Virus record (IMG/VR): IMGVR_UViG_638341086_000001
Coordinates: 1-28,152 of that record
Length of the DNA stretch: 28,152 nt
Source: a virus
Taxonomy: Duplodnaviria; Heunggongvirae; Uroviricota; Caudoviricetes
Strand: one strand, 5' to 3'
The notes beneath the pieces were generated by a model. It saw only the letters and a program-made list of their open reading frames with translations, did no database searches and was not told the origin of the DNA. Both the position numbers and the translations under genes were made by a program. Shown here in pieces: positions 24,353 to 26,720 of this stretch. The stretch's first letter is position 1; the number at the start of each line of letters is the position of its first letter.

Positions 24353-25662
24353 AAGAGGTGGGCTGGACCAGCCTGTTTCAGGCGGTGGCTGAGCCTTTTG
24401 CCGGTGCCTGGCAGCAGGGCGTGAAAGCCGATCCGGAAAGTGTCCTCTCCTTTCATGCGGTGTTTTCTTGCATTTCGCTGATATCCCAGGATATCGCCAA
24501 AATGCGACTGCGCCTGATGCAGACCGATACACAGGGGATCCGCCGTGAAAAACGGCAGGGGGATATTGCCCGTCTCTGTCGTCGTCCCAATGCACAGCAG
24601 AATCGTATCCAGTTTTTTGAACTGTGGCTGAACGCCAAACTGCGTCACGGCAATACGGTGGTGCTGAAAATCCGTAACTCCCGGGGGCAGATCAAAGAAC
24701 TGCGTATTCTGGACTGGAGCCGGGTTGAACCTCTGGTGGCGGATGACGGCGAGGTGTTCTATCGCATTACACCGGACCGGAACTGCGGGATCACGGAGGC
24801 GGTGACGGTGCCTGCCCGGGAAGTGATCCACGACCGGTTTAACTGTTTTTTTCATCCGCTTGTGGGGCTGCCGCCGGTGTATGCCGCCGGGCTGGCGGCC
24901 ACGCAGGGGCATCATATTCAGGCAAATTCAACGTCTTTTTTCAGAAATGGCGGCAGGCCGTCCGGGGTGATTGAGATCCCCGGCAGTATAACGGAAGAAA
25001 ATGCGAAAAAACTGAAGAGCAACTGGGACAGCGGGTATACCGGCGAAAATGCGGGGAAAACGGCGATCCTGAGCAACGGGGCGAAATATAACCCCACGAC
25101 GTTTTCACCGGTGGATGCGCAGACGGTGGAACAACTGAAGATGACGGCTGAAATTGTCTGTTCGGTGTTCCGTGTCCCGGCCTACAAGATTGGCGTTGGC
25201 CAGCCGCCTTCCAGTGACAACGTGGAGGCGCTGGAGCAGCAGTATTATTCCCAGTGTCTGCAGACGCTGATTGAGTCCATTGAGCTGTTACTGGATGAGG
25301 CGCTGGAAACAGGGGAAAACGAGAGCACGGAGTTTGACGTCACCACGCTGCTGAGAATGGACAGCGAACGTCGCATGAAAACGCTGGGTGAATCGGTGAA
25401 AAATACGCTTCTCACGCCCAATGAGGCCCGTAAACGTGAGAACCTGCCGCCCCTTGCCGGCGGTGATGCACTGTATATTCAGCAGCAGAACTACAGTCTG
25501 GAGGCGCTGTCCCGTCGTGATGCCCGTGAGGATCCGTTCGCGTCTTCCGGGAAAACGTCGTCAGGCACACGCCAGGAGGGCGCATCTGACGGTAATAAGG
25601 CCATAAGCGAAACAGAGCGTGATGCGGTGAAGGCGATGTTCAGGGGGATACTGAAAAAATGA
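24298..25662 (+). CDS. Portal protein (HK97-family)
   Basis: 454 aa; C-terminal signature ...FFRNGGRPSGVIEIPGSITEENAKKLKSNWDSGYTGENAGKTAILSNGAKYNPTTFSPVDAQTVEQLKMTAEIVCSVFRVPAYKIGVG typical of HK97-type portals. Confidence 0.8.
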   Translation: MWNLLRRTRKNQKSGRDVKEVGWTSLFQAVAEPFAGAWQQGVKADPESVLSFHAVFSCISLISQDIAKMRLRLMQTDTQGIRREKRQGDIARLCRRPNAQQNRIQFFELWLNAKLRHGNTVVLKIRNSRGQIKELRILDWSRVEPLVADDGEVFYRITPDRNCGITEAVTVPAREVIHDRFNCFFHPLVGLPPVYAAGLAATQGHHIQANSTSFFRNGGRPSGVIEIPGSITEENAKKLKSNWDSGYTGENAGKTAILSNGAKYNPTTFSPVDAQTVEQLKMTAEIVCSVFRVPAYKIGVGQPPSSDNVEALEQQYYSQCLQTLIESIELLLDEALETGENESTEFDVTTLLRMDSERRMKTLGESVKNTLLTPNEARKRENLPPLAGGDALYIQQQNYSLEALSRRDAREDPFASSGKTSSGTRQEGASDGNKAISETERDAVKAMFRGILKK

Positions 25663-26720
25663 CAGAGCGTGAACTGTCCATTATCCGTGCGCTGGGTGAA
25701 GAATTCTCCACGGTGCTGGCGGATTTACAGCGCACATTTGAGGGGAAGATGGCCTCGCAGGCACAAGCGTTTGAAGAGAAACTGACTTCCCTGTCGGCGG
25801 TATTACAGAAGCATGTGACGGTGGATGAGGTGCGTCCGGTTCTGCAGGCGATGGTGGATGACGCTGTGGGGGCCATTTCGGTACCGCGTGATGGTCGTGA
25901 TTATGATCCGGATGTACTGCAGCAGGCGGTGAATGATGCGGTCGGGAAAATACCGGTACCGACGGACGGCAAAAGTATCACCCCCGATGATGTGCGTCCG
26001 ATGCTTGAACAGATGGTGAAGGAGGCGGTAAGCCATATCCCTGTTCCGCGTGACGGTCGTGACTACGATCCGGAAGTACTGCAGAAGGCGGTGAATGATG
26101 CGGTCGCAAATATTCCACAGCCGGCGGACGGTAAAAGTCTCACCCCGGATGATGTGCGTCCGATGCTTGAACAGATGGTGAAGGAGGCGGTAAGCCATAT
26201 TCCTGTTCCGCGTGATGGTCGTGACTACGATCCGGATGTTCTGCAGAAGGCGGTTCTGGATGCGGTGAGTGCCCTGCCGGCTCCGCAGGACGGGCGTGAT
26301 GCCACGGCACTGGAAATACTCCCCGCCATTGACGATCAAAAATCCTTTCCCCGGGGCACGTATGCCACACACCAGGGCGGACTCTGGCGGGCGTATGAAA
26401 AAACGCACAGGATGCGGGGATGGGAATGCCTGGTTGACGGGGTGGCGGATATTGACGTCAGTATGACGGGGGAGCGGTTGTTCTCTGTGGTGATCCGGCA
26501 GAGCAGTGGCCAGCGTACGGAAAAAACATTTTCCCTGCCGGTGATGCTCTACCGCGGTGTGTTCAGAGCCGGTGAAACCTACCACCCAGGCGATACGGTG
26601 ACATGGGGGGGCTCGCTGTGGCACTGCAACAGTATGACCGGTGATAAACCCGGAGAAGCTCATTCATCAGGCTGGACCCTGGCTGCCAAACGGGGACGGG
26701 ATGCTGGAGGCGGAAAATGA
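25659..26720 (+). CDS. Head-module protein with internal 54-aa tandem repeats (function unknown)
   Basis: 353 aa; coiled-coil N-terminus; 2.6 copies of VPRDGRDYDP[DE]VLQ.AVNDAV..IP.P.DGKS.TPDDVRPMLEQMVKEAVSHIP; W/G-rich C-terminal domain (..GETYHPGDTVTWGGSLWHCNSMTGDKPGE..). Coupled to portal (ATGA) and connector (ATGA). Confidence 0.5.
   Translation: MTERELSIIRALGEEFSTVLADLQRTFEGKMASQAQAFEEKLTSLSAVLQKHVTVDEVRPVLQAMVDDAVGAISVPRDGRDYDPDVLQQAVNDAVGKIPVPTDGKSITPDDVRPMLEQMVKEAVSHIPVPRDGRDYDPEVLQKAVNDAVANIPQPADGKSLTPDDVRPMLEQMVKEAVSHIPVPRDGRDYDPDVLQKAVLDAVSALPAPQDGRDATALEILPAIDDQKSFPRGTYATHQGGLWRAYEKTHRMRGWECLVDGVADIDVSMTGERLFSVVIRQSSGQRTEKTFSLPVMLYRGVFRAGETYHPGDTVTWGGSLWHCNSMTGDKPGEAHSSGWTLAAKRGRDAGGGK
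25881..26300 (+). repeat. 162-bp tandem direct repeat (about 2.6 copies) inside the 353-aa gene
   Basis: Units begin at 25881 (GTACCGCGTGATGGTCGTGA...), 26043 (GTTCCGCGTGACGGTCGTGA...) and 26205 (GTTCCGCGTGATGGTCGTGA...); near-identical at DNA level with scattered substitutions. Confidence 0.6.

Follow-up and report, generated by a model that had tools for sequence, protein, structure and literature searches.

Fibrous accessories of the phage head and neck are represented by the phi29 head fibre gp8.5, T4 fibritin and SPP1 gp12, which stand among the head and neck fibres and collagen-like decoration proteins. The slot directly downstream of the portal gene, on the other hand, is the recognised position of the MuF genes (PMC5576092), and it is also where we find the gene described here. 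Portal proteins turn their C-termini, the crown, into the capsid interior (PMC4493910). In the window, by which we mean the whole stretch of 28,152 nt that was analysed (positions 1 to 28,152 of the Caudoviricetes record IMGVR_UViG_638341086_000001), the slot is filled by an open reading frame that we call gene X. It is an independent prophage gene, coupled in translation to the upstream portal gene, and not a broken piece of that gene. Its family is very large and uncharacterised, and is found between an HK97-type portal and a gp6-like connector in modules where protease, scaffold and capsid form one polypeptide; we found no virion proteomics, microscopy, genetics or other experimental work on its members in the literature.

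Gene borders, neighbours and distribution

Table 1. Features of gene X and its surroundings, in window coordinates
Feature	Position	Strand	Details
Protease / scaffold-like linker / HK97-type major capsid fusion, 645 aa	22149..24086	+	Pfam Peptidase_S78 and Phage_capsid; NCBIfam TIGR01554, TIGR01543
HK97-family portal gene, 454 aa	24298..25662	+	PF04860 E 6.6e-81; TIGR01537 E 2e-106
G5 tract in purine-rich AGGGGG element	25643..25647	+	12 nt upstream of the ATG of X; G6 in relatives joins the portal and X frames
Gene X	25659..26720	+	ATG start, 353 aa; PHROG 1289; NCBI name 'phage portal protein'; portal-adjacent fibre-like protein
ATGA overlap, portal stop TGA / X start ATG	25659..25662	+	termination-reinitiation coupling
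N-terminal long helix, aa 3-50	25665..25808	+	AlphaFold2, pLDDT about 90; heptad-like hydrophobic spacing from sequence
Tandem 162-bp (54-aa) units, stalk	25824..26309	+	13- and 17-residue helices alternating, PxPxDG(K/R)(S/D) loops between
Conserved C-terminal all-beta domain, aa 225-345	26331..26693	+	two CBM5/12-like motifs, YPRGTYAxHxGGLWRA and GDTVTWGGSLWHC
Second CBM5/12-like motif, aa 303-325	26565..26633	+	Pfam CBM_5_12 E 2.4e-4, 21.5 bits
gp6-like head-tail connector gene	26717..27043	+	Pfam Phage_connect_1; PHROG 40, head-tail adaptor Ad1

A first, sequence-only reading of this DNA had proposed a gene of 353 codons lying between portal and head-tail connector, coupled on both sides and preceded by a fused protease and capsid, and all of this holds: the frame starts with ATG on the plus strand, PF04860 and Phage_connect_1 identify its neighbours, Peptidase_S78 and Phage_capsid share the 645-aa frame upstream of the portal, and the ATGA at the portal stop is matched by a second one where X stops and the connector starts (26717-26720). 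With its G5 tract and ATGA overlap, the window reads X in the -1 frame relative to the portal. The portal frame alone covers positions 2-321 of the 321 in the PF04860 profile, and its domain is thus complete without X. The X protein itself gave no match to PF04860 or TIGR01537 in Pfam and NCBIfam profile searches, and Pfam, NCBIfam and PHROGs offer it no functional family beyond a propagated 'portal' label.

The same arrangement is widespread. Related loci were searched for with an 11-sequence C-terminal alignment as query, and from the loci gathered with a collagen-stalk homologue (P0259), which were mostly non-specific collagen matches, only the ~12 covering the C-terminal domain were used. 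The order protease-capsid fusion, portal, X, connector recurs in more than 25 genera, with the fusion always 5' of the portal in this type of module and with portal and X never in the same frame; indeed, the two frames differ without exception across about 40 loci belonging to Enterobacterales, Pseudomonas, Burkholderiales, Marinobacter, Haliea, Rhizobium and Caulobacteraceae. The ATGA overlap is present in Salmonella, Kluyvera, Kosakonia, Phytobacter, Atlantibacter, Enterobacter, Buttiauxella, Citrobacter, Rouxiella and Pantoea, and Enterobacterales retain ...AGAGGAnnnnnnACnAAATGA with this overlap at the junction and without a homopolymer, the junction element outside E. coli being AGAGGA or AAAGGA. 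Pseudomonas-type relatives have AAGGAG, then 8 nt, then a TTG start for X that lies 14 nt before the portal stop. Judged by this distribution, the two-gene layout is the ancestral one.

The family comprises 5,666 clusters at 50% identity (E<=1e-3), and only one of 149 representatives at that identity contains a portal domain. X-like sequence occurs in 1,246 of 5,426 complete E. coli genomes, at up to 26 places in a genome, and also in Stx1a- and Stx2c-converting phages. In Moraxella phage Mcat3 and Burkholderia phage vB_SBP9, related modules have the portal directly before the connector, and because X is missing from some related head modules in this way, it is an accessory gene.

A length-variable stalk and a conserved knob

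The middle of X is repetitive, and the signal is far beyond chance. Tandem Repeats Finder reports a period of 162 with 2.3 copies at 25884-26254 (89% matches, no indels, score 609), and a separate repeat search finds three in-register 162-nt copies over 25824-26309, of which copies 2 and 3 are 76% and 68% identical to copy 1; both agree with the 162-bp units, starting at 25881, 26043 and 26205, that had been read from the letters alone. Each 54-aa unit consists of two half-units, one of 25 aa (VPRDGRDYDPDVLQxAVNDAVxxIP) and one of 29 aa (xPxDGKSxTPDDVRPMLEQMVKEAVSHIP), and each occurs three times if one counts the degenerate B-type unit that comes first, at aa 52-75.

The suggestion that repeat number could vary is confirmed in relatives, where four allele groups are identical over their first 75 and last 140 aa and reach 353, 407, 461 or 569 aa by unit number only, so that this is a variable-number tandem repeat, with unit counts differing between otherwise identical flanks; match spans of 900, 1062 and 1224 bp are seen in phages and complete genomes. 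Collapse or expansion of the array during assembly, a concern raised at the outset, was considered and rejected: an artefact appears unlikely because 11-32% of positions vary between the units and because the same architecture, with 2.6, 3.6, 4.6 or 6.6 units, recurs in hundreds of independent assemblies. A 162-bp coding repeat could also cause short reads to be mis-assembled. We think that the number of units would change through slippage, or through unequal recombination among the 162-bp repeats, and would in this way set the length of the stalk.

Structure prediction agrees with the expected coiled-coil-type N-terminus and distinct C-terminal domain. The N-terminal helix is probably a coiled coil or an anchor, and is followed by six stalk helices (aa 55-71, 84-96, 109-125, 138-150, 163-179 and 192-204), which AlphaFold2, run on the monomer only, models at a pLDDT of just 50-70. 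The C-terminal beta domain, or knob, is modelled at 97-98. By fold comparison its best matches among solved structures are CBM5/12 chitin-binding domains, to which its fold is similar, and phage tail-fibre or receptor-binding proteins, and the BFVD matches are phage proteins of the collagen-repeat and CBM5/12 kinds. By sequence, a profile search of the PDB returned only weak matches of CBM type and to designed helical repeats, and aa 303-325 score below the Pfam CBM_5_12 gathering cut-off of 26.2. Of the 149 family representatives, 40 have collagen-like runs of at least six G-X-Y triplets, which form a tail at the C-terminus or replace the helical stalk, and this points to a trimeric fibre; the window copy of X contains no such triplets.

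Selection acts unevenly along the protein, with pN/pS at 0.21 in the C-terminal domain and 0.41 at the N-terminus, and by these ratios X is under purifying selection. The knob is the best-conserved part of the protein and the N-terminus the least conserved, while most receptor-binding fibres show the opposite pattern. It could therefore be that the conserved knob is the end that attaches to the virion or holds a trimer together.

Taken as a whole, X would be built from a coiled-coil-type N-terminal helix, a stalk of tandem helix-loop units and a conserved knob of two CBM5/12-like beta modules. We infer a trimer that serves the virion as a dispensable accessory, either a head or neck fibre or a decoration, and whose knob may bind a glycan or a conserved virion partner. 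For this full reading, a portal-coupled independent gene that encodes a fibre of variable length, we consider the chances to be about even. The fibre-like anatomy and the CBM5/12-like knob are compatible with the decoration or surface-display role proposed earlier, although the surface location itself is only presumed.

Could X instead be an internal, portal-bound head protein, analogous to SPP1 gp7 and the MuF proteins or to the P22 portal barrel, which docks on the crown and may organise the DNA or follow it at ejection? This is a serious possibility, if a rather unlikely one. The slot directly 3' of the portal is a hallmark of MuF and gp7 (PMC5576092), X is coupled in translation to the portal, and its long N-terminal helix could lengthen a barrel. 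Moreover, two independent fusions to the portal C-terminus, in the E. coli G6 alleles and in one other family member (P0224), bring X to the crown, which is the innermost region of portals (PMC4493910), and the fused alleles are carried by the sequenced phages 2851 and YYZ-2008; with the crown inside the capsid, in-frame fusions of this kind would put the fused X inside the head, which favours an internal location bound to the portal. Against this, X matches neither MuF profile, PF04233 or PF06152, fusions are rare outside E. coli, related modules dispense with X, and a three-stranded collagen segment is not simply matched to a 12-fold crown. The collagen-like stalks and CBM5/12-type knobs of the X family are, besides, typical features of external fibres, and we know of no internal head protein that has either.

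One may go further and imagine X as the founding member of a class of portal-vertex or neck fibres, so far undescribed, in HK97-like siphophages (Stx1a and Stx2c phages among them), with its length set by the coding repeat and its tethering by the G5/G6 tract (free, or joined to all twelve portal subunits), so that a prophage lineage would switch between two virion forms. We regard this larger proposal as improbable.

The G5/G6 tract and the 'portal protein' label

Among 85 E. coli-type loci the tract is G5 in 58 and G6 in 27, some with flanks identical over 620 nt, a ratio that applies to these sampled loci, taken as a proxy for the 8,624 places that complete E. coli genomes contain. The fused portal-X proteins of the G6 alleles read ...AMFRGDTEKMTERELS. 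Portal and X are separate in the window; they are fused in frame in those 27 loci and in one of the 149 family representatives. In E. coli, we suggest, the purine-rich element upstream of the X start became a run of five Gs, and one added G would then bring X into frame with the portal. It is these variants, yielding proteins of 800-1030 aa, that explain the name, which has been propagated to X from its fusions with the portal. Isolated phages carry both forms: BP-4795, 1717, Salmonella FSL SP-016, RHph_X2_26 and IME307 have portal and X as two frames, and in 2851 and YYZ-2008 they are fused in coding sequences of 859-861 aa. The sequence-only reading was right that X is a distinct, coupled head-module gene; what it missed was the database label of a portal C-terminus and the G5/G6 fusion, which affects about a third of E. 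coli copies.

The databases themselves suggest another reading, in which a long portal has X as its C-terminal domain and the window holds a frameshifted, pseudogenised portal gene. A 99.9% identical locus is annotated by PGAP as 'phage portal protein, frameshifted' (4640-7062 of L001), PHROG 2271, with 859 positions, covers portal plus X where X alone is PHROG 1289, many E. coli proteins are in-frame fusions, G6 is present in 27 of 85 loci, 2851 and YYZ-2008 have the fused coding sequence, and the window has further one-base deletions relative to L001. We nonetheless find this reading very improbable. All relatives outside E. coli have two frames with an ATGA overlap and no homopolymer able to slip, G5 is the majority form in E. 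coli itself and is found in independent assemblies as well as in the sequenced phages BP-4795 and 1717, the portal domain is whole, fusion is confined to a single family representative in 149, and purifying selection on X persists on G5 backgrounds, the pN/pS of the C-terminal domain being 0.20 there and 0.18 with G6.

A programmed or leaky -1 frameshift at the G tract (G GGG AUA, with rare AGG and AUA codons), by which G5 phages would make the 454-aa portal together with a minor portal-X fusion, in the manner of the tail chaperone G/GT, seems more improbable again. The X frame is open from 25623, and if ribosomes slipped by -1 on the GGG within 25643-25647, the product would be exactly the fused ...FRGDTEKMTERE of the G6 alleles; the next 0-frame codon is AUA, a rare codon in E. 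coli. However, a canonical X XXY YYZ heptamer is absent, Pseudomonas-type relatives have another frame offset and a Shine-Dalgarno sequence and start codon of their own, and we set the idea aside since the slippery run, E. coli-only and replaced by AGAGGA or AAAGGA in other genera, is not conserved. Least credible of all is an assembly factor, a scaffold or portal chaperone that leaves the virion, because for all that position in the head module, coiled-coil N-terminus and portal coupling might suggest it (and a scaffolding role had indeed been floated), a scaffold-like linker already lies within the protease-capsid fusion, related modules do without X, and no scaffold known to us offers a precedent for a stalk of variable length, for collagen repeats or for a knob of carbohydrate-binding type.

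These points matter in practice. X is named 'portal protein' throughout, or else the native form with two genes is marked as a pseudogene with a frameshift, and correcting this removes a systematic annotation error, alters calls of prophage intactness, and reveals a large and uncharacterised family whose members are probably virion fibres, with a knob of glycan-binding type and a stalk of variable length. Such proteins might be candidates for accessory adhesion of temperate coliphages.

Comparison with known systems

X adjoins and couples to a true HK97-family portal (PF04860/TIGR01537), and shares one reading frame with it in 2851, YYZ-2008 and roughly one in three E. coli copies, but it has no portal domain and is a separate gene in every other genus examined. 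With SPP1 gp7 and Mu gpF it has in common the place directly 3' of the portal, the occasional fusion, and a helical N-terminal part joined to a different C-terminal module (PMC5576092). In MuF proteins, however, the N-terminal domain is conserved and the C-terminus varies, whereas X has a repeat or collagen stalk and a conserved beta knob, and membership was rejected on the lack of any PF04233 or PF06152 match at E<=0.1. The C-terminal barrel of the P22 portal resembles the G6 alleles in being a long helical extension after the portal crown (PMC4493910), although the extension in X is normally a separate polypeptide of 350-570 aa with a beta knob at its end.

For the knob, the natural comparison is with CBM5/12 chitin-binding domains and the CBM5/12-type distal domains of tail fibres in Agrobacterium phages 7-7-1 and Milano and in Pseudomonas phage Pa193 (gp47). 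X differs in packing two modules into one 120-aa domain, in its sub-threshold Pfam score and in its gene, which lies in the head module and not in a tail-fibre region; ligand binding by the knob is putative. Finally, our fold searches returned no sequence or fold match between X and phi29 gp8.5, T4 fibritin or SPP1 gp12, and yet these are proteins that the proposed X would resemble in kind, as dispensable fibrous accessories with a coiled-coil or collagen stalk, encoded among the head or neck genes.

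The repeat gene and its neighbours

The finding of X, as we call the 353-aa ORF between the portal and head-tail connector genes, is real, and everything observed in the sequence-only reading was found again, namely the ORF, its 162-bp repeats, the ATGA overlaps and the neighbouring genes, which profile matches identify as a protease-capsid fusion, a portal and a connector (see table). Tandem Repeats Finder gives a period of 162 bp and 2.3 copies at 25884-26254 (89% matches, 0 indels), and a separate repeat search places three 162-nt copies, in register, at 25824-26309. At the protein level, the 54-aa unit comprises two half-units of 25 aa and 29 aa, each a short helix and then a PxPxDG(K/R)(S/D) loop. 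The portal stop and X start overlap as ATGA (25659-25662), and the X stop and connector start likewise overlap (26717-26720).

X and neighbouring head genes in the window
Feature	Position	Strand	Length
X, ORF	25659-26720	+	353 aa
Peptidase_S78 + Phage_capsid fusion	upstream of portal and X		645 aa
Portal, complete PF04860/TIGR01537	24298-25662		
gp6-like connector	26717-27043		

Several other features of the window were recorded. The large terminase gene (20425-22085) is spread over three ORFs. A near-identical E. coli chromosomal locus has the gene intact at 1,662 nt, and by comparison the window is missing a G at 20922 and carries G>T at 21495, the first base of the stop ending the middle ORF; either the prophage copy is defective or these are sequence errors. 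Against the same locus, four single-base deletions within 100 bp (27220, 27242, 27258 and 27319), all in GG, GGG or CC runs, cut short the head-closure gene (27053-27322) and move the start of an HK97 gp10-like ORF, and these look more like sequencing compressions than decay. The small terminase gene contains a 27-bp tandem duplication (20308-20361; 2.0 copies, 85% matches) encoding the K/A/G-rich KKGDAGKKSAKGDAVKKA. A 73-aa ORF (24131-24352) that matches nothing in Pfam or NCBIfam shares its last 55 nt with the start of the portal gene; E. coli prophages, BP-4795 and YYZ-2008 have an ORF annotated as a conserved hypothetical protein in that position. Small unassigned ORFs also sit just ahead of the portal in phages of Salmonella, Moraxella and Burkholderia, a likeness that is positional. 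In a distant relative, Rhizobium phage RHph_X2_26, the capsid fusion gene is separated from the portal by an SGNH-hydrolase-type gene (2094-3308 of the locus).

Portal and X as separate or fused genes

Databases call X a portal: PHROG 2271 ('portal protein', 859 positions) runs the whole length of both the portal ORF and X, PHROG 1289 (331 positions, likewise 'portal protein') covers only X, NCBI lists the standalone 353-aa protein as 'phage portal protein', and PGAP, on a 99.9% identical E. coli chromosome, makes both ORFs one 'phage portal protein, frameshifted'. The labels arise because portal and X are fused in frame in many E. coli proteins, which have ...AVKAMFRGDTEKMTERELS... in place of the window's ...AVKAMFRGILKK* and subsequent MTERELS. 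A single base separates the two states, AGGGGGAT in the window (five Gs, G5, at 25643-25647) against six (G6) in fused alleles. The tract can be read in 85 loci, of which 58 are G5 and 27 G6; some G5 and G6 loci do not differ at all over the 400 nt upstream and 220 nt downstream, and several haplotypes carry G6, so the change is recurrent or has been spread by recombination. Sequenced phages have both layouts, split in BP-4795 and 1717 and fused in 2851 and YYZ-2008, and notes in the 1717 record indicate a portal that is long in EDL933 CP-933V and short in Sakai ECs1544. X is no part of the portal protein, but one G sets whether the two are fused, and this is the main correction to the sequence-only reading.

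Relatives were taken from one genome per species plus IMG/VR. More than 25 genera keep the protease-capsid fusion, the portal and X in that order, including Salmonella, Kluyvera, Kosakonia, Phytobacter, Atlantibacter, Enterobacter, Buttiauxella, Citrobacter, Rouxiella, Pantoea, Morganella, Pseudomonas, Pseudoduganella, Paraburkholderia, Marinobacter, Haliea, Rhizobium, Caulobacteraceae and metagenomic phages, with the connector after X wherever it was detected. In all of them the portal and X frames differ. The Enterobacterales junction reads ...AGAGGAnnnnnnACnAAATGA, with the four-base overlap of the window and, at the position of the E. coli AGGGGG, a purine-rich element without the homopolymer; Pseudomonas-type relatives have AAGGAG, a spacer of 8 nt and a TTG start 14 nt ahead of the portal stop. 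Only one of 149 X-family representatives (50% identity), the 1,237-aa P0224, carries a portal domain. Separate frames, a shared overlap without the homopolymer and the rarity of fusion together indicate that the two-gene, translationally coupled layout of the window is the native state. The fusion is a derived variant of E. coli, and the 'frameshifted portal' label is an artefact of annotation; for the same reason, the G tract is unlikely to be a conserved site of programmed frameshifting.

A fibre-like accessory protein

An AlphaFold2 model built on a 70-sequence alignment (mean pLDDT 80) has an N-terminal helix (aa 3-50, pLDDT about 90) whose hydrophobic residues are spaced in an a/d-type pattern, a stalk of six helices, 17 and 13 residues in turn, joined by 12-residue loops (pLDDT 50-70), and an all-beta domain (aa 225-345, pLDDT 97-98), within or just before which almost all 23 nearly invariant positions fall. 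This domain contains two CBM5/12-type motifs, YPRGTYAxHxGGLWRA and GDTVTWGGSLWHC...KPG...W, the second matching Pfam CBM_5_12 with a score below threshold. Foldseek ranks Agrobacterium phage 7-7-1 tail fibres and Milano receptor-binding-complex proteins at the top and gives a TM of 0.69 to 2d49, and the BFVD matches are phage proteins with collagen repeats and CBM5/12. Of 149 family representatives, 40 have at least six consecutive G-X-Y triplets, either as a tail behind a conserved KRGRDGKDG end or as the stalk itself, replacing the helical units. Collagen-like segments are three-stranded, from which we infer trimeric rods for the family, with the helix-loop units as an alternative stalk.

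In P0224, an independent portal-X fusion, the stalk is made of a different repeat of ~22 aa (LPEPEPLPDIxxMVxxAVxxI) in some 25 units, so the type of stalk repeat is interchangeable in the family. The 473-aa homologue in RHph_X2_26 also matches tail-fibre PHROGs 5073 and 6049.

Stalk length varies too, with relatives of 353, 405/407, 461 and 569 aa (2.6, 3.6, 4.6 and 6.6 units) and 900-bp match spans indicating 1.6 units. In four separate allele groups the first 75 and last 140 residues are identical and unit number alone differs, a pattern that marks recent unequal recombination or slippage and supports the earlier inference. X is under purifying selection: across 39 distinct alleles of the C-terminal domain, pN/pS is 0.21 (0.20 on G5 and 0.18 on G6 backgrounds), against 0.41 in the N-terminal 72 aa and 0.05 in a portal segment.

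In Moraxella phage Mcat3 and Burkholderia phage vB_SBP9, whose portals are 40-44% identical to that of the window, the gene order is the same, with a small connector gene directly after the portal, and two tblastn searches gave no match to X in either record; Pseudomonas phages IME307 and PAJU2 have an X homologue in the same slot (for IME307, 27% identity to the window protein, E 8e-27). Judged by these absences, X is an accessory rather than a core assembly gene, which argues against a scaffold. The earlier interpretation is partly right, in that the gene is separate and its repeats vary, while the scaffolding option is unlikely.

We see about an even chance that X is an accessory fibre or decoration on the outside of the head or neck, given its fibre-like build, glycan-binding-type knob, variable stalk and dispensability. 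That it is instead an internal, portal-bound protein is unlikely, though it does occupy the slot right after the portal, the classical place of SPP1 gp7/MuF internal head proteins (PMC5576092), and in-frame fusion to the portal C-terminus would put it at the crown, the most internal part of portals (PMC4493910); fused alleles are nonetheless present in sequenced phage genomes. Less probable still are part of a frameshifted portal, as PGAP has it, a programmed frameshift between the two genes, and an assembly factor. In addition, the knob of X, being its most conserved part, may be the virion-binding or trimerisation end and not a host-binding one.

Our literature search found no experimental study of any family member. 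A library of 1.84 billion representatives yields 5,666 clusters of the family with E<=1e-3, or 608 when the limit is E<=1e-30. This large family is misnamed and of putative function, and X itself fits best as a new form of phage fibre or decoration protein.
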